A DNA stretch of 58,460 nucleotides from a virus (IMGVR_UViG_3300034073_002726:1-58460); one strand, 5' to 3'. Shown: positions 1 to 13,115, counted from the first letter of the stretch. The notes: generated by a model from the letters alone, not told the origin. Program-made: numbers and translations.

Positions 1-3000
1 TTCTTCTGGTTGAAGCGCTGGATCTCCTGCATTGCTTCGGCCCGTGCCTCGGCATCCTTGGCCATGGTGGCGCGTGCTGCCTTGGCCAGCAACTCCTGGC
101 GGCGCTCGCCCAAAGCACGGTCCTGCTGGTAGATCGCGCTCTTGCCCTCAGTGGCATTGCGCACTTCCGAGGGCGAGAAGCCCAGGAACTGACCCGCCAC
201 TCCAGCCAAGCTCACCTCATCCTGGATGACCACTCCGGTTTTGTCCTGCACGCCCTCGGACTCGTAGCGAATCGCTTTGATTGGCCCTCGCAGTGCTGCG
301 GGCATCATGGCTTCCAGCCCGCGCGCATATTGCCCCTGGGACATATCCTGCAGGCCCTTGAGCACGTTGATGCCGATACCAGCCACCGGACCCAGCGCTG
401 CAGCCATAGCGGCTTCACCCAGGCGCTGCCCTTCCAGGCCCTCCTGCACGTCAGGGAAGATCAGCCGATCCAGGCCTACCCGGCCGGAAATGTCCCATGG
501 CGTCAGGCGCGACAGGCCATGCGCCAGAACTTCTGCTGGCTTCTGGCCCAAAGTGTCGGCCAACATGTTCTGTAGCGCCACCTTGGCATCCCATGGCTCG
601 TCGTCATCCCCGCCAATCATCGAGGCAGCCGCCAGCAAGGTTGTCACCATGGGCAGGCCCAGCACCCCGGCGGCTGCTGCATGGGTGGCCAGCAACCCGC
701 CCAGCGCCTTGCGCGCCTGTGCACGGACTTCTGGCGATTCGCCCTTGATGGCCTGCTGCGCATTGCGTGCCAGGGTATAGACCATGTTCTGGCCATACTG
801 CTTGAACAGCAACAGGACCTTGGCCACATTGCCTTGCATGAACCGTGGGCGATTTGCCGCGCCGTAGTCGAAGTGGCCATCGTAGGTTGCCTTCGTCGCT
901 TGCTCAAAAGCCGCTTTGTGGTCGGCACCCGCCTCGCGCGCCAGCCGGTAGGCCGCCACAAACGTCACCTGGCGGTTGAAGCGCTCGGCGTGGTGGAACA
1001 GGAACGATGCCCAGCGCATTACTGGCCGGATCTTCCACATCACCCCCATGTCCTCGCCCTGGGCGATCCCGGCCAGGTCGTGCGCCATGGTCACGTCGAT
1101 GGTGCCCGCGCGCACCGCCTCGTTGTAGGCCGCCAGCTCGTCGGCATTGAGCGATGCCGTGATGTCGTTCTTGCCCTTTGCCGCTTCGGCACTGGCCTTG
1201 AGCAACGCGGCGCTGGCCTTGCCATACCCCCACTTGGCCCCCATGATCGGGTACGCCACCAGCGCCGTCTGGCTCAGGTTGACCATGGCCGATGCGGGGG
1301 ACAAGCCCAAGTGGAACACGAACCCCAGGCTGGTCAGCGCTGTGGAAACCGGGTTGCTCTTGGGGTTCATCAGCGACTCATGGCGCTTGTTCATCTCGTC
1401 CACCACACGCTGGGCACTGTTCTGGTCGAAGTCCTCCACCTCGCGCCAGTCGTCCACATGCCGCTGCATCGCAGCCAACTCGTCCTGCATCAGGTCCGAG
1501 TAGCGCAGCTTTGCCAGATACCGGGCGCCGTGGAACATGTTCTGCGCGAACGCCCGGCGTGCGTCCTGGCTGAACCCCGGCGTGCCCTTGCGGTGAATGC
1601 CGTGCTTGGCCCAGCTCAGGTCAGGCAGGCTCGACAGGTACAGCTGGCCCAGCGTGTCCTCCAGCTCTGCACGCTGTGCCGCGTCCATGTCCTGCTTATC
1701 CAGCACCTGGTACAGCTCGGTCATGAAGCCGCGGCCCACCGCGTCACGGTCAGCGATGAAGTCCTTGGACAGCATCACCCGGCCCACGGTGAAACCTTTG
1801 TCGCGCGGGAAGGCCGACAGCAGGTTATTGCGCAGCGCCTCGGCCTCGGCCTTGGTTTCTGCCCGGCTCACGCTCTCCACCTTGCCGTCTGGCCCCTTCA
1901 CCGTCACCGCATACTGGCCAAAACGCGCCAGAGGGAAGTACACCCCCTTCACCGCCTTGAAAAACTCGTCGTCCATCTGCTTGAGCAGCGCCGCCTTGCG
2001 CTCGCCCTTGATCTCGCTGCGCTCGATCCGCTCCTTGATGGCGCTGCGCACCTTGGCGTGGTGCGACTTGTAGGAATCCCGCGTATCGGCGTAAACCTTC
2101 TTGGCATCGTCGCTCAGCAGGTTGTACTTGCGCCGCAGCTCCAGGTACTTGCCCTTGTCGTCGCCATCCACCAAATCCTCGGCAGGGTCGATCTGCGCCA
2201 AGGTGGCATCGTGCATCAGGTCGGCTAGCTTGGATTCATCCTGGAGCTTGGACCAGCGCGTCACCAGCTGGTCAGCTTCGGCACCGCCCTCGTTCTTGTC
2301 GGCTTCCATCTGCTGCACCAGCCGGTTGTACTCGGCCAGCGGCACCAAGTCGCCGTAGATGTCCACGATCTGGCGGCGGCCCAGGGCCTGCAGCCCAATG
2401 CCCAGGTAGTCCGTCAGCTTGAAGCCAGCGCGCTGCTTGACGTTGGAAACGGTGATGGATTTGATGGCGGCGCCAATGCGGGCGCCTGGGCCGTCGTCTA
2501 CGCTGCCTGCAGTGCGGCTGTAGAAGATGCGCTCATCCGCGCCAAACGCCTCGCCTCCATCTCGGCCACGACCAAGCCGGGATACATCCTCGCCTGCCCG
2601 AGCCAGAAGGCTTCCTCGTTCGGGTAGTTGCCGCGCGCCATCAATGGGTGTGGTTTGGAGGTGTCGGAATAATGCTGCTCGCGCAATAGTTCGCCAACCC
2701 GCTTGTCCCGCTGCTCCTGCTCCATGAGCCAAGCGATACTCGGAGGCGGATCGCTTGAGAACGAAAGCCAGTTGTCCGCGAGCCAGAGAACGTCCGGTGT
2801 CGGTTCGGTAGAAGCCTCGGTCGGGGTCATATGCGATAAGTTTGGAGGTCGGCATTGCATTATCCAGCGCCTTCACGCTGGCCGCAATCATTCTTTCTAC
2901 GTTGCCCACGTCGTCGCCATACACCCAGCGCAGAGGTGGAACGCCATCGCCGCCGCGTACCTGATCGGGGTGTGGTGCCAGGTGCGCTGTGGTGCCGAAC

Positions 3001-6000
3001 TTGAGGGCGCTGGACAGCATCTGCTCCAGGCGGCGGCGCAGCGCTATCGTGCTCAGGCCGGCCGGGTCGCCAATGAAAATCTTTCCTGTGTTGTGGGCGT
3101 AGTTCGTGGCGATGGCGTAGACCTTCTCCCCACCCTGCCCGGGCTTAAGCAGCGACACATCCAGCCACACATCTCCTGTGCGCGGGTCCACATCCTCGGG
3201 GTTCTCCCCGGGGCGCTCAGTGATCTGGTCGGTGATTTCTCCGTCCACCTGGTTGTAGCCATACAGGCTGGGGCCGTAGGGATTGCCGGTGCGCTCTGTG
3301 ATGCGCGCCACGCCGAAGTCAGGATGGTTCAATGTGTACATTGTCTCCCCGGGCAGGCGCGTCACGCGGACAGCAATCTTGGAGTCAATGTCAGCAGCGA
3401 TCCCCGCCACCGTATCTTTGCCAGACTTCGGCAGCGCAAACAACTCGTCCGCCTTGGCAAACTCGGCCAACGCCTTCTTTCCTGCATCCTCACCCAGGCT
3501 GAATGCTGGCTCAAAACCGCCCTGAACCTCAGGGGCTGCAACGGTAGCCGCGCGCCCGCGCTCCACAAAGCCGCGTGCGGGAATGATGTAATTATTCACA
3601 ATCTCAGCATCAGTTAGCTTGAGGTTGTTGAAGTACGGGACGTTTTCTCTCAGCCACGTCCTGATAACTGCGATCGCACGTTTTACAAAGCCGATGTCTG
3701 GCCGGACCTGTGAAAGTTCAGCCAGCACTTCCTCGGCCACCTCTCGGCGCTGCTTTTGCACCTTCAGGTCTTTCCCATACTCCTCGGCCTTGGGCTTCAT
3801 CAGATCGGGCCGGGCCATGGCGATCTGGTCCAGGATGCCGTCCAGGTCTTTGCCAAACATGGCGCGCAGGCCGTGGTGCCCCAGCGCTTCGTGGAACAGG
3901 GTTTCTGCAGCGTCACGCACGCTCGTCAGGCCATCTGCCACCAGATACACCTGGCCGCGGTAGTAGAAGCCACGGGGCGAACCAGTGGCGCCGCCTGCAC
4001 GCTGGCGGGCATCCTCCAGGCGCGCAGCCTCTGGTACGCGCATGTCCTGCATATTGGGCACCACGATGATCGTCGGCGCCTGGGCCCAGCGGGCGGCGAT
4101 GGTGTCGGCCACCTGGCGCACAGTGGTTTCGTTCATGGCGCCGGGGGCACCACGGCTCATCATTGGGGAGTCGCCTTCAGGCTTCAGGTACACCTCGCGG
4201 ATAAACCAGCCCCCATCCTTGCGGAAGGTGAACGGGTCAATCTTCTGCGCCTCGTCCTTCAGCAGGTCTGTGCGCACGATGCCGGTCAGAACCTTGCCCT
4301 TGCCGGTGGTGTGCGTGATGATTTCCGCGCCGTTGCGGTCCACCGTGCCCACGGCGTCAGGGTTGGCGGCTTTGGGTGCCTTTGGTGCTGTTGGCTTGCC
4401 TTCGACCTTCGCCTGGGCCCGCTCTGCCTTCTTGGCTTCGCGCTCGGCCTGCTCGCGTTCTGCCTGGGCTGCGGCCTCCTGCTCGGCTGACATTGCCCGC
4501 GGCGGCATGCTGATGTCTTCGATTTCGTCAAACAGCTGGCCAATGTCTTTGGTGTCGCTCAGGTCAATGGCTGGGCGGGCATTGGGCGCCTTGTCCTTGT
4601 TCGACTGCTTTTCCAGAATGACGATGCGCGTGACCACCGCCGTGCCGGCGCGTTCAAACGTCACCTGCGGCAGCTTGATTTCGGCCACCATGTAAACGCC
4701 GTCCGCGGGGCGGAACTTTTCTACACGCGGTCCTGGCTTAATGCTCTTGGCCAGGGTCAGCGGCTTGCCTGCAAACCGATCCTCGCCAGGCGCACGGAGA
4801 AAGTCCCCAGATGCGGCGCGGTCCACGCGATCCGCAACAACGTCAATCGCACGCCCCATGAACTCCACCGTTACGGTATCGCCGCGGTGAATCTCTCCCA
4901 AAGTTGGGTGTTTGTAGATCGGCTTGGATAGGCGCTCAGTCTCGCCATACATCCACTGGTCAAACCGCTTGTCAGCAGCTGGGCCAGTCGGGATCAGCGC
5001 AGCAATCCGGCCACCGTCACGCAGGTGCTTCACCGCTTTGGCCAGGTGCTCAATGGCCGTCTTGCCACCCACACCAAAGGGCGGGTTCATCGCAATACCG
5101 TCATATTTGTTGACGATGTTGTGATCCTCAAACGTGCCGTCAATGATCCGGTCCTTGCTGGCATCCATGGCCATGGCCAGGCGGGCGCGCAGCGTGGTGG
5201 ATGGCTCAATCACCGTGCGGTTGCTGATTTCCGGCAGCCAGCGCGCAATGGCCCCGTGCCCGGCGCTGGGCTCCAGGGACGATTCGCCGCCTCGCAGGCC
5301 CAGCCACTCAGCCATCTTGAAGCCCACGGGCTCAGGCGTGGCGAAGTAGTCCACACCCTCCTGCGCCTTGGTCTTGCTGTTCTTTTTCTGGGTCGCCCAG
5401 TAGTAGGTTTTCGCGCGGTCGTAGGCGGTAATGGCGGCATTGGCCATCTGGTCCCGCTCCTTGCCGCCCTTGCCCTCGCCTTCGTGGCCTGGAGGGTAGG
5501 TGTCCGACTCCTCAAACGCGGAAATGAATGAGTCTTTGAGTGCGCGGGCTTGCTCGCCCATGCCCAGGTTCTCGGCAGTGCTGGCGCGGCCTGCAATGGT
5601 GGTGGCAAAAGTCCACTTCTCCCAGTTGGTGCCGGTGTTCAGGTAGCGCATGATGGCGTCGCTGACCTGACCAGTGCGGTAAATCCGGCCCTCTTGCTGG
5701 ATGGCCAGCGTGGGCGCAGTAGGCTGGCCCAGGTTAATCAGCACGCGCTGGTGCTTGCCCGTGGTGTCGTGGCCGCTCCAGCCCTTGTTTTTGGCCGACT
5801 GCACCAGCATCACCTGCGGGCCGCTGGCGTCGTCCTGGAATCGCTTGTAGCGCTCCAGCAGATCCGCCTTTTTCTCGTCGCCGTTCACCAGCATGGTGTC
5901 GGGCAGCTCACGCTTGAACACCTCGATCGGGCTATCCAAGTCGCTCAGCGGTGCGTTCACCAGGCGCTTGAAGCGGGAACGGAACTCTGTCAGCGCCTCT

Positions 6001-9000
6001 TTGTAGGCCTCAAAGTCGGCTTTGCGCTCCTCGGGGAAGTCCTCGGGGAGTGTGCGCGGCACCTCAATATCGAACGGGTTGAACCCCCCGCCCTTCTTGT
6101 AGTCGTGGAACACCACCACCTTGCGGCCCAGGCCCAAGTGCTGGCGCACGATAGGAATCACCTCGGTCGCCTTGATGGCCTCCAGCAGGTAGCGGCGGCT
6201 CAGGAAGTCGAATTTCTTGCTGATAACGTCGCGCAGCGCTGAATACCCGTTCTTGTTGGCGTCCTCGCGGGCCATTTCAGAAACCCAGTTCAGCGCCTCG
6301 TCAATCTGGTTGCCAATGCCAGAGTCCACCAGCACAAAGCGGCGGTCATAGTCGGCGGGCACATCCAGCATACGGGCCGACAAAGAGCCCTTCTTGCGCA
6401 GCCAGCCGTTGAAATTGCGCTGCAGCAGCCCCGTATCCACCTTGGCGGGGTCCGGCTTGGTCAGCTTGTTGTAGCGCATCGAGTAACCGAAGTGCTGCAT
6501 GAAGAAGCGCTCGCGGTTGTCGCCCTGGTTGTAGCCGCGGGACTCGGTCTTGTCGCTGGGTTGGCCCTCGTTGTAGTCGAACAAGTAGCCATTGGCCCAG
6601 TCCACAGTGAACTCGTAGGCAAACGGCGTGGCCGACAAGGCCAGCAGGCGGGCGCGCTTGGCGCCCTGCATACCGTCCACCTCAGCCTGCACAGCCTCCC
6701 GCGCCTCGCGCAACTTGGCGGCCAGCGCATCGGCCTCGCGCTGCAGCTTGGCGTTTTCCTGGCGCACCGACTCCATCATGGCGTCCATCGTGTCCAGGTT
6801 GTTGAGGATCTTGTTGTTGCCCTCAATCCGTGCTGTCAGGTCACGCTGCCGGTTCAGATCATCCCGGTTCAGCATGGTGTGGCGCTGGCTCGCCCCGTCC
6901 GGGTGGTGGGTGATGGCGCGCAGGTTGGCCAGGTAGGTTGTCACCTTGCCGTCCGCCGACTGCATCAGCGTGTGCGATTCATCCGCCACCACCAGATCCC
7001 ACTGGCGGCGCGCCAGCGCATCGTTCTCACCCAGGTTGGCGTATGTCGTGATGACGATGCCCTTGCCTGCGTCCTGTGTGTCCTTCAGCTTGGTGATCTT
7101 CAGGCCCAGCGGCTCACCAGACTCCACCCAATCGGCGGCGATCTTGTCATCAGGCACCACAATCAGGGTGTTGGTCTTGCCCTGGCGCTGCATGCGCTTG
7201 ACCACGCCCAGGCCAGTGAAAGTCTTGCCCGTGCCCGTGCCATTGGTGAACAGCATGCCGTAGCCGTCAGGCACCGCGAAACGGTCCTCGGCCTTCTTCA
7301 CATCCTCCTGCTGGCCTGCAAGCAGGTAGGGCAGCGTCGCCTTGATGTTGTCCAGGTCGCCGGGCTTGACCGGCACCTTTTCAGCGGCGCGCTGGCGCTC
7401 CAGCTTGCTTAGCTTGTCATTGCCTGTTTGAGCAACTGCGTCAACTTGCGCTGCTGGAATGGGGTCAATGGATACTCCATCGACGCCAATGTCACTGCCT
7501 CGTTCACTGAAGTCACTTCCGGCAGAGACATTCGCAGCATCGGCTGCTGCGTTTCCTCCAGGTAAGAGGAAATCGCCTCGGTTTCCACCAGCAGCGGGGC
7601 CACCAGTCGGTACGCCAGCACCACGCGGTTGTCGGCCCCGGCCTTCTCCAGTGGCTTGTCCACCAGCTTGTCCAGCTGGGCGGGTAGCTCCTCGGGCGTC
7701 AGCCGGAACAGCGTCGCCCATGGCTGGCTCAGCGGCTGCATCGCCGCGATCTGGTTCCACACTGCCATTGGCACCTGCTGCATCTTGGTTCTCCTGCGCG
7801 GTAATCGCGTCCACATCGGCCGATTCAACGGCGGCCGCGCTGTCCATGCCGTCCAAACTTGCGGCACGCGGGTCATATTTGACACCCATGTACCACGATT
7901 TCAAATAGGGCCGCACACCGTCGCCCAAGTCTGCCAGCATGGCGCTGGCATAGGCGGCGAAGGTGCGGGCACCCTTCTCAATGTGATAACCGGCCAGCGT
8001 GATGCCGTCGATCATCATTTCTGGGTCAATCCCACTATTGAGGCGTCCCAGCTTCTTCTTCAGGCGCTCACGCGCCTTGGCGGCGGCGTCTTCGGTAAAC
8101 ACCGTGTTCGCGCTTACAGCTGGTGCCGGCGCTGGTGCTGGCGCCTCGGCGGGCATGTCAAAAATATTCGTCTGCCCGGTCAGGCTGTCCAGCGCGTCCT
8201 GGCCCAGTTCAAAGTTATCCGCTGCACGCTCTGACGCCTGGGCAATGCGCTTGCGCTCCTCGGCCTGGCGCTCTTGCTCCCGCGCCTTGCGGTCGGCTGC
8301 TTCCTGCTCGCGCTTGGCTGCCTCGGCGGCGTCCTGGCGGGCCACGATTTCCTCGGGGGTTTGGGCGGTCAGCAGTGGCTCGGGCTCGGTAGGTGGAGCT
8401 GCCTTCTCTCCCTTCAAGCGCGCGGCTGTCCTGCGCTCCAACTCGTCAAACTGCGCATCGGTGACATCCCATTCGCCATCTTCGTTTACGCCAATGCCCA
8501 TTTCGGCGGCTACGGCAGCCTGCGCTTCGGTGTAGTTCTCGCGGCCTTCGGCTTTGCGCTTCAGTTCAGCCTGTGCTGCAATCGACAATTGACGCAATTC
8601 AAAACCGCCAGCCGCTTGCACAACCTCATGGGTGCCAGTCAGGTCATAGCGCTCCTGAAATTGCTGCGCGCTGATTTTGGATTTGAATGGCTTCCCGTTT
8701 TCTTGGCGAACCACACGGTCAGACCGCAGGCGGCGCACCACTGCGTCGCGTTCTTGGCTTGCCGCCCAGGCGTTGTAATCCTTGGGCAGACCTTCTACTG
8801 GCTTGCCGCCCTGCTCCACATATTTGACGTAGGCCGCAGCCTTTTCGTCCATGGCTAGGCCATCAAATGCACTTGACCCCTTGACGCTTGCAGCCTTGTA
8901 GAGCTTGGCAGCCTCGCCACGCTCCAGTAGGTTGTTGAGAATCTGCGTCGGGAATGTGCGGAAATCGCGCTCCAACTGCTGGGCCGCGTCTGATGGCGTT

Positions 9001-12000
9001 GCTGCTGGCTTTTCTGCCTTGGTTTTTGAATCCTTTGCCGTCTTCGGCTTCGCCGCCTTCTTGGGCTTCTCGGCCTTTACACCTGCGGCTTGTGCTTCAG
9101 GTTCGCCGCGCTGTCCTCCTGGGGCAGCGGCTGCTTGGGCGCCATTACCTTCTTGGCCGCCTGGATTGCCTTGGCCATCTTGCTGTTGGGCTTGAGCCTG
9201 GGCATTTTGTCCGGGTTGGCCTCCGCGATCTTGATTAGATCCAGGCCCGCCTTCTCCTGCTGCTTGTCCCCCGATTCCCGGCTGGCCTTCACCAGGACCG
9301 CGCCCAGTATCGACGCTGCCAGCGGGTTGTCCTCGGCCTTCTTGGGGTTGAGCTTCTGCATTGCCTTGTCCTTCATTGAGTCGGTTGACGATTGTCGCAA
9401 GAATGTCCCCAGCCGTCACCACGTCGCCAAACATGCCAGCGTCTGCGCTGGTCGTCATGGCGCCCTGCACATAGTCGGCCAGATGCTGGGTCAGCTTTTC
9501 CTTGCCAATGGCGCGGGTCAGGTACTGGCCGCTGTAGAACAGGCGCAGCATGCCCACCGTCATCTCGGCGGGAGTCTCGCCCGTCATCAGATCCGGCTGG
9601 TTCACCAGGTCGTACAGGCTCATGCCGTCGCGGCGCGCCTTGCGGATCAGGCCAATGGCCTGCAGCAGGTTGTCGGTAATGTCGGTTTGCGGGTTGATGG
9701 CGTTCAGGCGGGCAGAGTCGCGCATGTTGGCCCACTGCCCGGCCACGGTTTTCAGCGCTTCGCCAATCGCCTTGATGTCCGTATCGGTGGAGTCAAACAT
9801 TTCTTCCACGATGTCGGAATCACCATAGGCGGCCTGCATCAGCGCGGCCTGGATGCGCTTGCGGCCGTCTTGTGACAGCTGGCCGTCTGCCGTCATCATC
9901 CCGGCCACATCCTGGCCAGCGCCCTGCAACTTGCCAATGAAGGCCCGCACAAAGTCGCGATTGGCAGCGCTGGTCACTTCGCCAGGCTGGTACACCGCCA
10001 GCACGCTGGAGTCCATCAGCGGTGCATCCTGGCGCGCCAGCTCGGCAGGGCTCATGCCCAGGCCTTGGCCCTGGCTCTTGGCGGCCATGCCTGCCGTGTT
10101 GTCGCTGTCCGAATACACCCGCACCAGGGCGGCATTCGGCGTGCGCGCAATGATGTCGGGCGAAATCCCGTGCATTGGAGTGTCAGCCTGCATGGCCTGC
10201 ACGTACTCGCCAGCCGTGCCAAGTTCGTGGGCACCGCGGATGCCCGCCGTGCGGCCATTGTTCAGCGCCTTAAGCGTGCCCGGCACCGTAGAGTCGAACA
10301 ACTCGTTGCGGCGCCCGTCTGCAAAGTTGGAAGGGTTCACCTTGGTGGCATCCACCACGGCATAGCGGAACGGCACCCGCTGGCCGTCGCTCATTACCGC
10401 CACATCCTCACGGCCATAGGCGTCAGGCGCAATGTCCTTCAGGTCGTCGCCCACGGCAAACACCATGGGCGCTCCACTGTCCGGTGTGCGGCTGGGGCCC
10501 AGGCGCATGTAGTCGGGGTTGCGCGCAATGTCGCTCATTTGCACCACCGAAGCCGCGCGGCCGCGGTCGCGGTTCTGCATGTTCACGTCTTGCGGCGCTT
10601 CCAGCGGCGGCAGCACAGGCGCAGCGCCGCCCTTGAGCGAGTCGTACTCGGCTTTGAGGGCGGCATGCTCGGGTGTGCCCACCTTGATCTGGCCTGGCGT
10701 GAACCCCTTGGACTTTGCAAAACTCCAGAAGTCGGCCGGCGCGGATTGCGCTACCGGGCCAGCCTGTGCGGCCTCTACCCCAGCGGCTTCCACCGCCCCA
10801 GCTCCCGCTGCGGGTACTCCGGCGGCTGGGCCTGCGGGCTGTGCTCCCACAGCTTGCGGCGCTTGGCCTGGCTGGCTGATAGCTGGGGCTGCTTGAGGTA
10901 CTTGGGGTGCTTGCGGTACGTCTTGGACATTCACGGGCTCCTGCGGGCGAACGACAAAGCCACCCGCCACGGGCACCACGGCACCGGGCGTCTTCTTGGC
11001 TGCACGGTCTGCTGCCATGCGGGTCTTGAACGGCTCACCGGCTGGGTTCAGGATGTCGGTGGGCGCTGGCGTAGCGCGTTGCGATACAGCCTGGCGCAAG
11101 CGGTCTGCCACAGGGTCGGTCTGGGCGGGCGCTTCGGATGCCGCGCGGGCAAGGCGCTGCTCTGGCGTCAGGCCCTTCTCGGCCTGCATGCGCTGCTGCA
11201 CATCGGCGGGCGTGATGCGGCCAGCGTCGAAGTCGCGCACGTAAGCGCGGGCTGCTGGCGTGTTCACGCCGCGCAGGTTGTCCAGATAGTTCTGCACCGG
11301 GTCTGTTTGCAGATCCAGGCCCACACCATCTGTGCGGGTGCGTGGCGCACGCTCCACGGGCGCGGCATCAGCCTGCTGCATGCGGGCAATCGTTTCGTTC
11401 AGCCGGGCCTCGCCCTGGGCGGCCATGTCTGGCGTCACCCAATTGGGCGGGACCAGCACGAAGCCACCTGCAGGATGCTCGGCCACAGCCAAATCCAGCC
11501 CACGATTGCGGGCTTCGTCCAGCATGCGCGCAGCATCGCTGGCGGGCATCGGGGGGCGGCGTTCGGCCACATTGGCCACGTTGGTGATGGCCGCGGCTTG
11601 CGCTTCATTGTTCATTCCCAGCGCGCCAGCCAACGGGTCGGCCCGCCCGGCCATGCCGCCGCCACCCAGCATGGAGCCCATGTCGGTATCGGTCAGGCGT
11701 TCGCCCAGCACAGGAGGTGGTGCATTCTCAGCCAGCAGCCGATCCAGCAATTTGCGGTTGAGTTGGAGTACACCTTTCGCCGCATCCGGCCGATTCAGAA
11801 CCGCATAGGCGCGCAAGGCGTCCTGGCGGGCGCCATCGGGCAGGGCGAGAATCTGATCGCGCACCGGGTCATCCACAGGCTCGGGCACGGGCTCGGCTGC
11901 CGCCTGCTCATCCACCAGCGGGGCGCCAGCCTCTACCGCCTGCGCCTTGGCCTCCACGCCTGCATTCACCGCCTTGGTCAGCGCGCCGGACTCGGGTAGC

Positions 12001-13115
12001 TTCTCGGTGGCTCGGATGGCGTCGGCGGCTTCCTTTGCGGGGTTAACGGCTGGGTCTAGCGCTGCCGCCTGACCTTCAAGCGGGCCGGTAATACCACCCA
12101 ACAAACCACCAATCGTGCCTTCCATCAGGCCTTGACCTACCACGCCTTGCATACGTCGCTCTGGCGCCAGCACACCGGCGTCCACCGCCGCATCATTGCC
12201 CGCAAAGCGCTCTTGCGCGCCTTGGCCGCCTTCAGTCGCAAATTCTTTGCCAAAACCCTTGGCCACGGAAGACATCACGCCCGATTGAACGGGCTTCTTG
12301 CCAGCGCCAAGCAAGGTGCGCTCAATCGGCCCGGTGGCAGACGCCACACCACCAAGTACACCACCAAGCACCTGCTGCATCGTGCCTGCGCCGCCATACT
12401 CCTGCGCTTGCGCGGCCAGCGCGCGGGCTTCCTCTTCTGGCATGCCTTGCTGTCTGGCGTTCTCGTAGGTTTGCTCGAACTGGGAGCCCTTGACCGCGCC
12501 AACACCCTGCACGGCGCCCAGGCCAATGTTGGTTTTAAAACCAAACTTTGCGGCTTCCTCGACCGCTTGCTTGGCGGCACCGGATGCTAAAAACACATCC
12601 TTGCTCACGCCTGCCGCTTTGGCCGCCTGTGCCAGCTTGAGGGCCTGAGCCACTTTGCCCACACCCAAGGTGGCGAACGATCCCACCCCTTGTGCGATCA
12701 TCTCGGCCGGCTGATCCCACAACATCCCCAGATAGGCCTGCGCCTCATCTAGTTTGCTGCCCGACGCTTCCGCCTCTTTGATGCGGGCCATGCTGGCTTG
12801 CGTCGCGGCCTGAGACTGTGCGCTTTTTTGTGCGAACAAGAACTTTGACGCATCATCCAGCCCACCCGATACAGGGTTGTCCGCGCCCAAAAAGTCGCTG
12901 ATGGACTTGAACGAGCCCAAAGCCCCCTGCCCCAGCGACAAACCCACATCGCCAATGCGGCGGGCTACGCTGGGTTTTTCGGCTGCAACAGGCGCCGCAG
13001 CAGAGGCCGCCACTGGCGCATCAGCAATCCCGGCCCACTCAAAATCGGCAGGATCGGCATCTACCCAACGGGCTTTTTTCTGAGCGATCTGTCCTACTTT
13101 GGGTTTGGTTGCCAT
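1..13115 (-). CDS. Giant polyvalent (DarB-like) internal virion/ejected protein, >4370 aa, 3' end beyond window
   Basis: ATG at 13115 (MATKPKVGQIAQKK) with AGGA SD. The frame is still open at position 1 (...EIQRFNQK) and is absent from the ORF track, consistent with no stop codon. Motifs: ddrB/ParB-like (QNRDR...NNGRTAG, ~9400-10600), SF2 helicase (NGTGTGKT ~7230, VADESH ~6980, QQEGRIYR ~5690), N6-MTase (LEPSAGHG ~5265, NPPF ~5080), metallopeptidase (FHEALGHHGLR ~3880), GNAT-like (~2900-3200), YFPLARFG (~1930). Confidence 0.9.
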   Translation of the reverse strand, partial: MATKPKVGQIAQKKARWVDADPADFEWAGIADAPVAASAAAPVAAEKPSVARRIGDVGLSLGQGALGSFKSISDFLGADNPVSGGLDDASKFLFAQKSAQSQAATQASMARIKEAEASGSKLDEAQAYLGMLWDQPAEMIAQGVGSFATLGVGKVAQALKLAQAAKAAGVSKDVFLASGAAKQAVEEAAKFGFKTNIGLGAVQGVGAVKGSQFEQTYENARQQGMPEEEARALAAQAQEYGGAGTMQQVLGGVLGGVASATGPIERTLLGAGKKPVQSGVMSSVAKGFGKEFATEGGQGAQERFAGNDAAVDAGVLAPERRMQGVVGQGLMEGTIGGLLGGITGPLEGQAAALDPAVNPAKEAADAIRATEKLPESGALTKAVNAGVEAKAQAVEAGAPLVDEQAAAEPVPEPVDDPVRDQILALPDGARQDALRAYAVLNRPDAAKGVLQLNRKLLDRLLAENAPPPVLGERLTDTDMGSMLGGGGMAGRADPLAGALGMNNEAQAAAITNVANVAERRPPMPASDAARMLDEARNRGLDLAVAEHPAGGFVLVPPNWVTPDMAAQGEARLNETIARMQQADAAPVERAPRTRTDGVGLDLQTDPVQNYLDNLRGVNTPAARAYVRDFDAGRITPADVQQRMQAEKGLTPEQRLARAASEAPAQTDPVADRLRQAVSQRATPAPTDILNPAGEPFKTRMAADRAAKKTPGAVVPVAGGFVVRPQEPVNVQDVPQAPQVPQAAPAISQPGQAPQAVGAQPAGPAAGVPAAGAGAVEAAGVEAAQAGPVAQSAPADFWSFAKSKGFTPGQIKVGTPEHAALKAEYDSLKGGAAPVLPPLEAPQDVNMQNRDRGRAASVVQMSDIARNPDYMRLGPSRTPDSGAPMVFAVGDDLKDIAPDAYGREDVAVMSDGQRVPFRYAVVDATKVNPSNFADGRRNELFDSTVPGTLKALNNGRTAGIRGAHELGTAGEYVQAMQADTPMHGISPDIIARTPNAALVRVYSDSDNTAGMAAKSQGQGLGMSPAELARQDAPLMDSSVLAVYQPGEVTSAANRDFVRAFIGKLQGAGQDVAGMMTADGQLSQDGRKRIQAALMQAAYGDSDIVEEMFDSTDTDIKAIGEALKTVAGQWANMRDSARLNAINPQTDITDNLLQAIGLIRKARRDGMSLYDLVNQPDLMTGETPAEMTVGMLRLFYSGQYLTRAIGKEKLTQHLADYVQGAMTTSADAGMFGDVVTAGDILATIVNRLNEGQGNAEAQPQEGRGQPAGSVDTGRGPGEGQPGIGGQAAGEGGPGSNQDRGGQPGQNAQAQAQQQDGQGNPGGQEGNGAQAAAAPGGQRGEPEAQAAGVKAEKPKKAAKPKTAKDSKTKAEKPAATPSDAAQQLERDFRTFPTQILNNLLERGEAAKLYKAASVKGSSAFDGLAMDEKAAAYVKYVEQGGKPVEGLPKDYNAWAASQERDAVVRRLRSDRVVRQENGKPFKSKISAQQFQERYDLTGTHEVVQAAGGFELRQLSIAAQAELKRKAEGRENYTEAQAAVAAEMGIGVNEDGEWDVTDAQFDELERRTAARLKGEKAAPPTEPEPLLTAQTPEEIVARQDAAEAAKREQEAADRKAREQERQAEERKRIAQASERAADNFELGQDALDSLTGQTNIFDMPAEAPAPAPAPAVSANTVFTEDAAAKARERLKKKLGRLNSGIDPEMMIDGITLAGYHIEKGARTFAAYASAMLADLGDGVRPYLKSWYMGVKYDPRAASLDGMDSAAAVESADVDAITAQENQDAAGANGSVEPDRGDAAAEPAMGDAVPADARGATRPAGQAGGQATGEGRGRQPRGAGVPTGGPAAGGNRGDFLLPGGNAAADAANVSAGSDFSERGSDIGVDGVSIDPIPAAQVDAVAQTGNDKLSKLERQRAAEKVPVKPGDLDNIKATLPYLLAGQQEDVKKAEDRFAVPDGYGMLFTNGTGTGKTFTGLGVVKRMQRQGKTNTLIVVPDDKIAADWVESGEPLGLKITKLKDTQDAGKGIVITTYANLGENDALARRQWDLVVADESHTLMQSADGKVTTYLANLRAITHHPDGASQRHTMLNRDDLNRQRDLTARIEGNNKILNNLDTMDAMMESVRQENAKLQREADALAAKLREAREAVQAEVDGMQGAKRARLLALSATPFAYEFTVDWANGYLFDYNEGQPSDKTESRGYNQGDNRERFFMQHFGYSMRYNKLTKPDPAKVDTGLLQRNFNGWLRKKGSLSARMLDVPADYDRRFVLVDSGIGNQIDEALNWVSEMAREDANKNGYSALRDVISKKFDFLSRRYLLEAIKATEVIPIVRQHLGLGRKVVVFHDYKKGGGFNPFDIEVPRTLPEDFPEERKADFEAYKEALTEFRSRFKRLVNAPLSDLDSPIEVFKRELPDTMLVNGDEKKADLLERYKRFQDDASGPQVMLVQSAKNKGWSGHDTTGKHQRVLINLGQPTAPTLAIQQEGRIYRTGQVSDAIMRYLNTGTNWEKWTFATTIAGRASTAENLGMGEQARALKDSFISAFEESDTYPPGHEGEGKGGKERDQMANAAITAYDRAKTYYWATQKKNSKTKAQEGVDYFATPEPVGFKMAEWLGLRGGESSLEPSAGHGAIARWLPEISNRTVIEPSTTLRARLAMAMDASKDRIIDGTFEDHNIVNKYDGIAMNPPFGVGGKTAIEHLAKAVKHLRDGGRIAALIPTGPAADKRFDQWMYGETERLSKPIYKHPTLGEIHRGDTVTVEFMGRAIDVVADRVDRAASGDFLRAPGEDRFAGKPLTLAKSIKPGPRVEKFRPADGVYMVAEIKLPQVTFERAGTAVVTRIVILEKQSNKDKAPNARPAIDLSDTKDIGQLFDEIEDISMPPRAMSAEQEAAAQAEREQAEREAKKAERAQAKVEGKPTAPKAPKAANPDAVGTVDRNGAEIITHTTGKGKVLTGIVRTDLLKDEAQKIDPFTFRKDGGWFIREVYLKPEGDSPMMSRGAPGAMNETTVRQVADTIAARWAQAPTIIVVPNMQDMRVPEAARLEDARQRAGGATGSPRGFYYRGQVYLVADGLTSVRDAAETLFHEALGHHGLRAMFGKDLDGILDQIAMARPDLMKPKAEEYGKDLKVQKQRREVAEEVLAELSQVRPDIGFVKRAIAVIRTWLRENVPYFNNLKLTDAEIVNNYIIPARGFVERGRAATVAAPEVQGGFEPAFSLGEDAGKKALAEFAKADELFALPKSGKDTVAGIAADIDSKIAVRVTRLPGETMYTLNHPDFGVARITERTGNPYGPSLYGYNQVDGEITDQITERPGENPEDVDPRTGDVWLDVSLLKPGQGGEKVYAIATNYAHNTGKIFIGDPAGLSTIALRRRLEQMLSSALKFGTTAHLAPHPDQVRGGDGVPPLRWVYGDDVGNVERMIAASVKALDNAMPTSKLIAYDPDRGFYRTDTGRSLARGQLAFVLKRSASEYRLAHGAGAAGQAGWRTIARAALFRHLQTTPIDGARQLPERGSLLARAGEDVSRLGRGRDGGEAFGADERIFYSRTAGSVDDGPGARIGAAIKSITVSNVKQRAGFKLTDYLGIGLQALGRRQIVDIYGDLVPLAEYNRLVQQMEADKNEGGAEADQLVTRWSKLQDESKLADLMHDATLAQIDPAEDLVDGDDKGKYLELRRKYNLLSDDAKKVYADTRDSYKSHHAKVRSAIKERIERSEIKGERKAALLKQMDDEFFKAVKGVYFPLARFGQYAVTVKGPDGKVESVSRAETKAEAEALRNNLLSAFPRDKGFTVGRVMLSKDFIADRDAVGRGFMTELYQVLDKQDMDAAQRAELEDTLGQLYLSSLPDLSWAKHGIHRKGTPGFSQDARRAFAQNMFHGARYLAKLRYSDLMQDELAAMQRHVDDWREVEDFDQNSAQRVVDEMNKRHESLMNPKSNPVSTALTSLGFVFHLGLSPASAMVNLSQTALVAYPIMGAKWGYGKASAALLKASAEAAKGKNDITASLNADELAAYNEAVRAGTIDVTMAHDLAGIAQGEDMGVMWKIRPVMRWASFLFHHAERFNRQVTFVAAYRLAREAGADHKAAFEQATKATYDGHFDYGAANRPRFMQGNVAKVLLLFKQYGQNMVYTLARNAQQAIKGESPEVRAQARKALGGLLATHAAAAGVLGLPMVTTLLAAASMIGGDDDEPWDAKVALQNMLADTLGQKPAEVLAHGLSRLTPWDISGRVGLDRLIFPDVQEGLEGQRLGEAAMAAALGPVAGIGINVLKGLQDMSQGQYARGLEAMMPAALRGPIKAIRYESEGVQDKTGVVIQDEVSLAGVAGQFLGFSPSEVRNATEGKSAIYQQDRALGERRQELLAKAARATMAKDAEARAEAMQEIQRFNQK
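2498..2830 (-). CDS. Putative overprinted (+1 frame) 110-aa protein nested in giant gene
   Basis: MTPTEASTEPTPDVLWLADNWL...; protein-like composition; upstream TTGCGG-N17-GATAAT promoter-like element; no clear SD. Confidence 0.5.
   Translation of the reverse strand: MTPTEASTEPTPDVLWLADNWLSFSSDPPPSIAWLMEQEQRDKRVGELLREQHYSDTSKPHPLMARGNYPNEEAFWLGQARMYPGLVVAEMEARRLARMSASSTAALQAA
7409..7783 (-). CDS. Putative overprinted (+1 frame) 124-aa helical protein nested in giant gene
   Basis: AGGAG SD (7791-7795) 7 nt before ATG; MQQVPMAVWNQIAAMQPL... looks globular while the host frame is a low-complexity linker. Confidence 0.65.
   Translation of the reverse strand: MQQVPMAVWNQIAAMQPLSQPWATLFRLTPEELPAQLDKLVDKPLEKAGADNRVVLAYRLVAPLLVETEAISSYLEETQQPMLRMSLPEVTSVNEAVTLASMEYPLTPFQQRKLTQLLKQAMTS
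9077..9361 (-). CDS. Putative overprinted (+1 frame) 94-aa basic protein nested in giant gene
   Basis: AAGGA SD 7 nt before ATG and TGcGACAAT extended -10-like element at ~9391-9399; MQKLNPKKAEDNPLAASILGAVL...; host frame is a G/Q/A-rich linker. Confidence 0.6.
   Translation of the reverse strand: MQKLNPKKAEDNPLAASILGAVLVKASRESGDKQQEKAGLDLIKIAEANPDKMPRLKPNSKMAKAIQAAKKVMAPKQPLPQEDSAANLKHKPQV

Follow-up and report, generated by a model that had tools for sequence, protein, structure and literature searches.

Among the embedded spanin genes Rz/Rz1 of lambdoid and many other phages, a larger gene encloses a complete small gene that is read from the same strand in the +1 frame and has a separate start. 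Both products are made, and the embedded class is described as annotated in Bcep22-like phages themselves (PMC9144972). The locus analyzed here shares the nested layout, but its host gene encodes a product exceeding 4000 aa instead of a similar-sized partner, the overlapped host frame is a low-complexity linker rather than a functional domain, and three putative nested genes are found in one host gene. The translations of these three frames, termed ORF1, ORF2, and ORF3, contain no cysteine, which excludes a lipobox and a lipoprotein nature. We therefore rejected an identity as Rz1-type embedded o-spanins, which is judged by the lipobox cysteine of a lipoprotein signal peptide.

Overprinted genes are familiar from small viruses, as in A/B/K/E of phiX174 and the accessory proteins of RNA viruses. 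There, one DNA stretch is reported to serve two frames under asymmetric constraint (PMC3494269, PMC8227390). The giant gene likewise combines two-frame coding with asymmetric constraint, but nothing obvious points to genome compression as the driver, given genomes of ~53–63 kb in its relatives from the phage collection. It also differs in that the nested small gene is the structured and constrained frame with normal codon usage. The usual picture of a disordered new gene within an old gene is reversed here, with the frame of the large gene being the disordered and free one.

The Dar antirestriction system of phage P1 comprises DarB and the helper proteins DarA, DdrA, DdrB, and Hdf, and these helpers are separate genes. 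P1 DarB is described as requiring additional small proteins, and mass spectrometry was reported to associate a giant protein homologous to the one encoded here with the virion of phage JC1 (PMC9144972). The likeness to P1 Dar lies in the DarB-like annotation of the relatives and in the ddrB-like ParB domain and helicase modules of the giant protein. For ORF1–3, no sequence similarity to a PHROG or Pfam family was found: no significant profile match was obtained from Pfam, PHROGs, NCBIfam, or PADLOC (the best were PHROG E = 0.027 for ORF2 and Pfam E = 0.16 for ORF3, with none from NCBIfam or PADLOC), and no fold match at E <= 0.001 was found for the nested proteins in PDB or BFVD. With its LPD37, LPD39, helicase, and ParB-like domain, the giant gene is typical of the polyvalent proteins of phages and conjugative elements, for which we found no description of genes nested in linkers in the literature searched. 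Prokaryotic genomes are considered to contain very few long same-strand nested genes (bioRxiv 10.1101/724807), a layout that gene callers forbid.

Architecture of the giant gene

The window, which is the whole 58,460-nucleotide stretch of viral DNA analyzed (IMGVR_UViG_3300034073_002726), carries the following features. The sequence also occurs in runs labelled RNA, but these probably represent DNA, and translation cannot be read from contigs.

3..13115, minus strand: giant polyvalent virion-protein gene, an ORF of >4371 codons with an open 3' end that runs off the window
10113..10592, minus strand: ddrB-like ParB domain, giant aa 842-1001, Pfam match
9375..9818, minus strand: U domain (our own name), giant aa 1100-1247, directly upstream of ORF1
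9364..9374, minus strand: Shine-Dalgarno-like GAAGGA and AAGG upstream of the ORF1 start, anti-SD pairing -5.4 kcal/mol
9077..9361, minus strand: putative nested gene ORF1, +1 frame, 94 aa, pI 9.9, stop included
7794..8108, minus strand: domain X, giant aa 1670-1774, directly upstream of ORF2
7791..7795, minus strand: AGGAG Shine-Dalgarno sequence, 7 nt upstream of the ORF2 ATG, anti-SD pairing -7.4 kcal/mol
7409..7783, minus strand: putative nested gene ORF2, +1 frame, 124 aa, pI 4.9, TAA stop included
5301..7421, minus strand: SNF2/ResIII-type helicase module, homology starting at the ORF2 end
2658..3182, minus strand: LPD37, giant aa 3312-3486, Pfam match, C-terminal end overlapped by ORF3
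2498..2830, minus strand: putative nested gene ORF3, +1 frame, 110 aa from the conserved ATG at 2830, pI 4.9
1932..2453, minus strand: LPD39, giant aa 3555-3728, Pfam match, downstream of ORF3

The giant protein thus contains ddrB-ParB, SNF2/ResIII helicase, LPD37, and LPD39 domains and a C-terminal PLxRFG domain; the U domain is conserved among relatives, and domain X shows widespread conservation in DarB-like giants. Each of ORF1–3 lies wholly inside the 13115..3 ORF, on the same strand and in its +1 frame, as a preliminary description of this DNA had claimed, and their overprinting is now supported by codon usage, selection, and the conservation of the ATG and, for ORF2 and ORF1, of a Shine-Dalgarno sequence. 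The good Shine-Dalgarno sequences that it ascribed to two of the ORFs were recovered as the AGGAG of ORF2 and the GAAGGA of ORF1. Its internal sigma70-like elements were not borne out, as we found one site in 2300..9700 where 1.4 +/- 1.2 are expected, without any excess. It was right in placing ORF2 before the helicase and ORF1 after the ddrB-ParB domain (the ORF1 start is ~250 codons past the end of the Pfam match), but the "GNAT-like" domain assigned beside ORF3 is LPD37 according to Pfam, and no sequence relative was found in PDB. The degeneration of the giant frame into linker, described for two of the sites, holds for all three, where the giant frame reads as a low-complexity linker of G, A, P, Q, R, E, and D. 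Sequence comparisons show that this linker is a tether, free in sequence and constrained only to remain open.

Codon usage and selection in the nested frames

The stop-to-stop extents of ORF1, ORF2, and ORF3 are 9415..9077 (112 aa), 7900..7409 (163 aa), and 2872..2498 (124 aa), with ATG start codons inside these stretches at 9361, 7783, and 2830. A G+C-rich gene whose linkers are poor in hydrophobic residues could contain such open frames by chance, leaving the ORFs meaningless, and the composition of such linkers removes +1 stops by construction. ORF length is compatible with this explanation: open stretches of at least 100 aa number seven in the +1 frame and seven in the +2 frame, 14 in all, the longest being a +2 stretch of 203 aa, and synonymous-codon shuffles (n = 1000) gave a longest +1 stretch of 144.9 +/- 21.1 aa against the observed 163 aa, which 18.8% of the shuffles reached. 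Length by itself is within chance expectation.

Composition is beyond chance in the three stretches. The GC3 of the giant frame drops from 0.74 overall to 0.38–0.42 exactly across the three ORFs. With a codon-usage log-likelihood score derived from 13 other ORFs in the window, only three of the 39 off-frame open stretches of at least 60 aa scored positive, and these were ORF1–3, with values of 0.571, 0.227, and 0.223 per codon against -0.170 for the next-best stretch; the giant frame scored negative only across the same three ORFs. Control off-frame ORFs showed the opposite conservation pattern; at 5638..5210, the off-frame peptide is 62% identical and the giant frame 84.5% identical. These observations, together with the selection in the +1 frame, the conserved starts, and the confident fold and large family of ORF2 described below, make chance a highly improbable explanation, and we rejected it for ORF2 and ORF1 on the grounds of selection, codon usage, and conserved starts.

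The comparative evidence is strong for ORF2. Its +1 peptide matched 36 of 38 related loci, whereas the peptide read from these bases in the giant frame matched 11 of the 38, and an HMM of the family detected ORF2 in 37 of the 38, the single miss being a locus without upstream DNA. In all 36 loci matched by tblastn, an ATG is present at the aligned start or within two codons of it, the +1 ORF is closed by a stop codon, and the giant frame is open across the homologue. Among the 28 distinct upstream regions of ORF2 homologues, 27 showed anti-SD pairing at least as strong as -5 kcal/mol, compared with 17% of 2284 control ATGs (p = 1e-15). Amino-acid identity is higher in ORF2 than in the giant frame in 99.8% of 662 pairs. 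In pairs with 80–95% nucleotide identity, dN/dS is 0.05–0.4 for ORF2 and >1 for the giant frame, close pairs (90–95%) giving 0.05–0.27 and 1.3–13, respectively. When whole giant genes were scanned by codon position in an unbiased manner, the ORF2 region was flagged in eight of eight close pairs. The family comprises 562 clusters (E <= 1e-3), mostly of 118–140 aa with the match starting at residue 1, for which there is no Pfam model. The AlphaFold model of ORF2 has an all-helical fold (pLDDT 89.4, pTM 0.84). The preliminary description expected annotation to miss such genes, and all eight annotated phage records under the ORF2 match list the giant CDS alone.

The evidence for ORF1 as an overprinted gene is good. 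It has 28 homologues with an invariant start, corresponding to the ATG at 9361, and the conserved motif K-A-x-[DE]-N-P-L-A-A. ORF1 is nested in the +1 frame at seven distinct loci, and the giant frame is open over its homologues in 10 of 10 locus rows. Identity is higher in ORF1 than in the giant frame in 28 of 28 pairs, and close pairs gave dN/dS of 0.18–0.36 for the nested frame vs 1.2–5.4 for the giant frame.

For ORF3, which extends over the last part of the Pfam LPD37 match and the LPD37–LPD39 linker and has few DNA comparators, the evidence is moderate. The conserved ATG at 2830 has no clear Shine-Dalgarno sequence (anti-SD pairing +0.7); an alternative ATG at 2860 would give 120 aa with a weak one (-3.5 kcal/mol). 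In three pairs only, dN/dS was 0.37–0.63 for ORF3 vs 0.97–1.23 for the giant frame, and pN/pS in the L008/L053 pair was 0.47 vs 1.2. The +1 frame is open for 91–124 aa with a common motif at this site in four further lineages. The giant frame is open over ORF3 in loci L043, L008, L053, and L055, and in L057 the ORF3 homologue is intact while the giant frame carries two stops, with the break upstream. Part of the conservation of ORF3 is common to the giant-frame motifs GWRTIARAA, IFYSR, and YD, the last supplying the ORF3 ATG. The core of the predicted structure reached pLDDT 84–93, and ORF2 and this core are predicted to encode foldable helical protein. The preliminary description had suggested a check of dN/dS in the +1 frame of relatives, and in all three cases the nested frame fell below 1 and the giant frame at about 1 or above, for ORF3 in three plus one pairs only.

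The substitution patterns show that purifying selection acts on the +1 frame in these stretches, where the codon usage is the normal one of the phage. The same resemblance to a true coding frame would be expected if the +1 stretches were part of the giant polypeptide, joined to it by programmed frameshifting or by compensating indels or sequencing errors. We consider this hardly credible. Both cultured phages and 36 independent contigs show the nested arrangement, every locus has a stop closing the +1 ORF, and a +1 stop immediately precedes the ORF2 ATG in many loci (e.g., L017-L020, L023, L025, L026, L029-L031). No stop interrupts the giant frame across the ORF2 homologue in any of the 36 loci, whereas openness by chance, estimated from the stop density of the +2 frame, would be ~0.03 per lineage, and no conserved giant-frame start codon was found after the nested stop. 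A programmed-frameshift extension of the G/GT type, in which the +1 segment is startless, was rejected as the ATG and the Shine-Dalgarno sequence are conserved. ORF1–3 are very probably real small genes, each lying in an interdomain linker of the giant virion-protein gene and read in its +1 frame.

Possible roles of the nested proteins

The small proteins would be made by independent internal initiation on the mRNA of the giant gene, from a conserved Shine-Dalgarno sequence and ATG for ORF2 and ORF1 and without a clear Shine-Dalgarno sequence for ORF3. The nested proteins might be immunity, inhibitor, or superinfection-exclusion partners of the adjacent enzyme modules, each pair moving as a cassette. 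All three ORFs are found at module boundaries, and a database protein joins an ORF2-like domain with domain X in a single frame. The co-occurrence of each ORF with its neighbor, which the preliminary description had anticipated, held in part: ORF2 accompanies this helicase type in 37 of 37 loci having upstream DNA, a count biased by the selection of loci for helicase homology, and ORF1 follows the U domain in eight of eight distinct loci where this domain is at least 52% identical, but in eight loci with a distant U domain an ORF2 homologue follows instead and ORF1 in none. ORF2-like domains are also fused in frame to unrelated sequences, none of the neighboring modules is a known toxin, and PADLOC and Pfam gave no hint of such a role. 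The fused ORF2-like domains and the replacement of ORF1 by ORF2 weaken a strict model of one module and one partner, and we regard partner cassettes as unlikely.

The nested genes might also be functionally independent, for example in anti-defence or host takeover, having been engulfed at gene fusion and kept for their own use. The nested frame seems to be the older, family members occur outside this context, in other fusions, L057 keeps its ORF3 homologue despite the broken giant frame, and equivalent linkers in other phages hold different, unrelated families. Against independence, the position of ORF2 directly before the helicase is strictly conserved over 13 lineages with <60% identity, and none of the loci examined showed a copy that stands free and is not overlapped. 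Such independence appears rather improbable, albeit conceivable.

We tentatively favor, as a possibility of nearly even weight, that the nested proteins are accessory factors, such as chaperone, packaging, or regulatory partners, for the giant protein or its adjacent module, with which they would share a transcript. We suggest this role because of the phage P1 precedent, in which DarB requires small helper proteins, and the likeness to P1 Dar is only an analogy.

Possible origin and generality of nested genes in giant phage proteins

The small genes might represent the older frame, as suggested by their codon usage and the out-of-context family members rather than by a rooted phylogeny. The linkers would have been born when neighboring module genes fused by read-through of the small genes in another frame. 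If the giant protein fuses through functional small genes, then the "linkers" would be overprints of older genes. A comparable case exists in Bcep22 gp75, where exactly one of 46 off-frame ORFs has a positive codon-usage score. This nested ORF is conserved in 41 phage records vs 10 for the giant-frame peptide, is unrelated to ORF1–3, and stands out likewise in relatives of Bcep22.

DarB-like polyvalent virion proteins might grow by module fusion through still-functional small genes, and the engulfed genes might form a hidden layer of module-specific accessory factors, without which the injected giant protein would not be folded, packaged, or activated. This generalization is speculative and, in our judgment, somewhat doubtful. 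The hidden layer would span many podophages, including this clade, Skulduggery, Parlo, ZX1, and marine Vibrio and Ruegeria phages; in Bcep22-like and Ralstonia phages it would consist of unrelated families.

In summary, one giant gene very probably hides three small genes, one of them founding a family of 562 clusters without a Pfam entry, and well-studied cultured phages (Bcep22, JC1, Skulduggery) appear to carry a comparable unannotated gene. The detection recipe, combining the codon-usage likelihood of off-frame ORFs with codon-position substitution scans, recovered such genes here and could serve for other long phage genes. The arrangement suggests a route to very large multidomain proteins, in which read-through in another frame makes the intervening gene a disordered tether while the gene itself is kept, and it makes the nested genes candidates for the helpers through which injected antirestriction proteins are packaged or controlled.

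The giant gene and its off-frame reading frames

The giant gene is a single open frame on the minus strand that extends from 13115 to 3, comprises more than 4371 codons, and runs past the edge of the window. The domains of its product, a polyvalent DarB-like virion protein, and the three small open reading frames (ORFs) nested in the gene are as follows.

Domains of the giant protein (minus strand, 13115..3) and nested reading frames
Giant protein residues 842-1001: ddrB-like ParB domain
Giant protein residues 1935-2060: ResIII/SNF2 helicase
Giant protein residues 2424-2534: Helicase_C_4, under the Pfam cut-off (21.4 v 30.5 bits)
Giant protein residues 3312-3486: LPD37
Giant protein residues 3555-3728: LPD39
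Giant protein residues 3724-4371: PLxRFG domain (NCBIfam)
9361..9077, minus strand: ORF1, 94 aa, basic
7783..7409, minus strand: ORF2, 124 aa, TAA stop at 7411..7409
2830..2498, minus strand: ORF3, 110 aa counted from a conserved ATG

Between the helicase module and LPD37, the translation of the giant protein (P0001) contains an HExxH motif (HEALGHH), which presumably marks a zincin-like peptidase module; Pfam gave no match to this region at E <= 0.01. The label "GNAT-like" in the preliminary description was not borne out by a PDB sequence search with the LPD37 region, which returned zero matches. In named phages, relatives of the giant gene carry the annotation "DarB-like antirestriction" or "PLxRFG protein", and the homologous giant protein of phage JC1 is reported to be virion-associated by mass spectrometry (PMC9144972).

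The giant gene is divided into three ORFs of 1166, 2849, and 754 aa in the related contig L001 (5128-19787), and into four of 878, 462, 251, and 3391 aa in L031 (4083-19051), so the fusion state varies within the clade. These different split places show that giant-gene fusions are plastic. The two contigs are the closest relatives, and their split points differ from the positions of the nested genes. A 16-kb contig from sequencing run X5 matches window positions 4007-8389 (14 differences) and 9032-9600 (22 differences), and has no match to 8390-9031 at the 85% likeness threshold; this gap suggests that what lies between ORF1 and domain X (giant aa 1670-1774, upstream of ORF2) has been subject to mosaic exchange.

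A frame check placed ORF1, ORF2, and ORF3 all in the giant gene's +1 frame, as previously described. Their lengths are indistinguishable from chance under shuffle nulls: the giant gene contains seven open stretches of at least 100 aa in +1 and seven in +2, and each of the three longest +1 stretches was equalled or exceeded in 12-31% of shuffles (1000 synonymous-codon and 1000 codon-order shuffles). Composition, unlike length, is evidence for the three ORFs. GC3 in the giant frame is 0.74 overall and falls to 0.38-0.42 exactly across them, where GC2 is low and GC3 high in the +1 frame, as is normal for a coding frame. We scored all 39 off-frame open stretches of at least 60 aa with a per-codon log-likelihood measure of codon usage (LLR) whose training set was 13 other long ORFs from the window. 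The three nested ORFs alone were positive (0.571, 0.227, and 0.223 per codon), the next stretch scoring -0.170, and the giant frame scored below zero only in their intervals, being positive in the remaining 36.

A 203-aa +2 stretch (11034..10423) and the stretches 9792..9373, 10182..9820, 5638..5210, 6681..6346, and 6775..6461 were rejected as genes, with the giant frame better conserved and LLR negative in each. Across window positions 3..13115, off-frame stops lie below the synonymous-shuffle level in both +1 (147 vs 164 +/- 5.4) and +2 (121 vs 147 +/- 9.5), a deficit for which the three nested ORFs can account only partly.

Conservation and selection in the nested frames

ORF2 was compared across 30 viral and 8 genome contigs that had been selected with the helicase module as the homology query. 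Of these 38 loci, 36 match the +1 peptide and 11 the giant-frame peptide from the same bases; in L001 the respective identities are 68% (E = 1.6e-56) and 55%. A family HMM detects ORF2 in 37 loci, missing only L035, a contig that begins at the helicase, with no DNA upstream of it. In all 36 loci matched by tblastn, the giant frame is open throughout the match and an ATG stands at the aligned start or at most two codons away, in many loci with a +1 stop immediately before it. Frame arithmetic in L001, L009, L012, and two annotated phage records placed the match in the +1 frame of the long ORF. Anti-Shine-Dalgarno (anti-SD) pairing of -5 kcal/mol or better was found for 27 of 28 distinct upstream regions vs 17% of 2284 control ATGs (Mann-Whitney p = 1.3e-15), and the window itself has AGGAG, 7 nt, and ATG.

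The 37 ORF2 sequences form 13 groups at 60% identity. Amino-acid identity is higher in the nested than in the giant frame for 99.8% of 662 pairs (means 0.42 vs 0.29), and pairs at 90-95% nucleotide identity have dN/dS of 0.05-0.27 in the nested frame vs 1.3-13 in the giant frame, the purifying pattern expected of the +1 genes that the preliminary description had proposed. Substitutions are concentrated at the nested third codon position, and an unbiased scan of codon-position differences along whole giant genes (2300-4060 aligned codons, dominated overall by position 3) flagged the region in all eight close pairs. We are thus nearly certain that ORF2 is an overprinted gene. The expectation that annotation would miss it also held: only the giant CDS is called under the tblastn match in all eight phage records (Skulduggery, Parlo, ZX1, Ruegeria 45A6, Vibrio D274, and Vibrio 1.232.O, with RefSeq duplicates for two). 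The family's stop (window 7409-7411) is read in the giant frame of most loci as CTA (Leu) followed by a purine; CTA is seldom used for Leu in G+C-rich genomes.

The ORF1 case follows the same lines. Its 28 database homologues have the start in common, as well as an N-terminal block in which 14 residues are invariant, and at the DNA level homologues are nested in +1 in L008/L009, L010, L011, L012, L039, L040, and L053. In these stretches the giant frame encodes a run of G/Q/E/P/R/D; over ORF1, G+A+P+Q+R+E+D make up a fraction of 0.88 in the giant and 0.49 in the nested frame. The nested frame has the higher identity in 28 of 28 pairs, dN/dS in closer pairs is 0.18-0.36 in +1 vs 1.2-5.4 in the giant frame, again in line with the earlier proposal, and the codon-position scan of L010/L011 independently flagged ORF1. 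We consider it very probable that ORF1 is overprinted as well.

ORF3 is the weakest case among the three. The database holds only six homologues, all from short contigs, and two DNA comparators were available, L043 and L057; additional scans of viral contigs added one contig, and a metagenome scan gave one locus. No SD precedes the conserved ATG, and conservation coincides in part with motifs conserved in the giant frame: SSTAA at the C-terminus is the giant-frame IFYSR read in +1. The AlphaFold model reached a mean pLDDT of 75.4, with a helical core at 84-93. Selection points the same way as for the other two ORFs, with dN/dS of 0.37-0.63 nested vs 0.97-1.23 in the giant frame (three pairs). 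In L057 (1162-1548), a 2.2-kb metagenome contig, the homologue is intact at 103 aa, and the homologous LPD37-like giant frame upstream of it has two stops; the sequence after it is not LPD39-like. The ORF3 peptide gave no tblastn match in the distant LPD37 homologues L008, L053, and L055. These carry in the same place a +1 ORF of 91-120 aa that begins with MT and has the common motif W..W[LM]E..K[RL].GE.LRE, and pN/pS for L008/L053 at this site is 0.47 nested vs 1.2 giant. ORF3 is probably an overprinted gene.

Overprinting of the three ORFs is thus supported, and the data show DNA coding in two frames, with selection acting on the small frame and the large frame just kept open.

Nested frames in other phages and occurrence of the window sequence

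We applied the same self-trained LLR scan to other giant genes. In Skulduggery gp28, one of 30 off-frame stretches was positive, and it is the ORF2 homologue. In gp75 of Burkholderia phage Bcep22, exactly one of 46 was positive:

L061 (Bcep22) 12278-12598, inside gp75, +1 frame: unannotated nested ORF of 107 aa, directly after domain X

Its peptide matches 41 phage records (10 Burkholderia and 31 Ralstonia), always under a DarB-like CDS, whereas the peptide that these bases encode in the giant frame matches just the 10 Burkholderia records, with lower identity in each. Homology of this protein to ORF2 was rejected (hhalign probability 0.6%). A further, different nested ORF is suggested by a +1 open stretch of 94 aa in the giant gene of L015 (8526-8810), also present in L016: between this pair, substitutions fall 7/1/0 at positions 1/2/3 of the giant codons. 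PHROG gave no match for it, and the ORF1 family HMM found nothing in either contig. Searches of the literature on DarB, polyvalent, and PLxRFG proteins and on Bcep22 gp75, covering mainly abstracts, found no account of genes nested in such proteins.

DNA nearly identical to the window is present in subsurface and soil sequencing runs, from which the window itself may derive, and wastewater, drinking-water, and unlabelled samples hold 36-61% of the sampled window words. Runs labelled RNA that hold the window sequence are probably DNA.

Predicted expression, possible functions, and proposed origin of the nested genes

Ribosome-binding sites are conserved for ORF2 and ORF1, and the small proteins are predicted to start by internal initiation on the transcript of the giant gene. 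Internal sigma70-like promoters, which the preliminary description had noted, do not exceed chance (1 site vs 1.4 expected). Frameshifting that would fuse the +1 segments into the giant protein was rejected because stops precede the ATG and the SD is conserved, and termination-reinitiation into the helicase was rejected because no giant-frame start codon is conserved at the ORF2 stop.

ORF1 follows the U domain (giant aa 1100-1247) in all eight distinct loci where this domain is at least 52% identical; in eight loci with a 37-43% identical copy, an ORF2 homologue comes next instead. The nested proteins might tentatively be accessory factors of the giant protein, the function that we rank first. 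That they are independent genes engulfed by it ranks second and seems rather unlikely, and immunity or inhibitor partners, as originally proposed, rank third as an improbable option.

The ORF2 family also occurs outside this setting. A word-indexed search found 114 homologues, mostly of exactly 124 aa, and a profile search retrieved 562 cluster representatives at E <= 1e-3 (447 at <= 1e-10), most of 118-140 aa and matching from residue 1. Some members are longer in-frame fusions. ORF2-like domains stand in frame with other sequence in the database proteins P0158, P0256, P0184, P0278, and P0202, in one of which domain X of the giant protein follows and in one acidic repeats; one has a hydrophobic tail that, judged by eye, looks as if it spans a membrane. 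Pfam matched none of these five and none of ten tested family proteins, and ORF2 itself has no family match in Pfam, PHROG, NCBIfam, or PADLOC. The AlphaFold2 model of ORF2 (37-row alignment) has eight helices, with pLDDT 89.4 and pTM 0.84; Foldseek searches with it found no match in PDB or BFVD at E <= 0.001, and the ESM Atlas gave nothing usable for ORF2 or ORF1.

From the phage-normal codon usage, the folded product, and the family outside this context, we infer that the small genes represent the older frame. The linkers of the giant protein would then have arisen as module genes fused, reading through the small genes between them.
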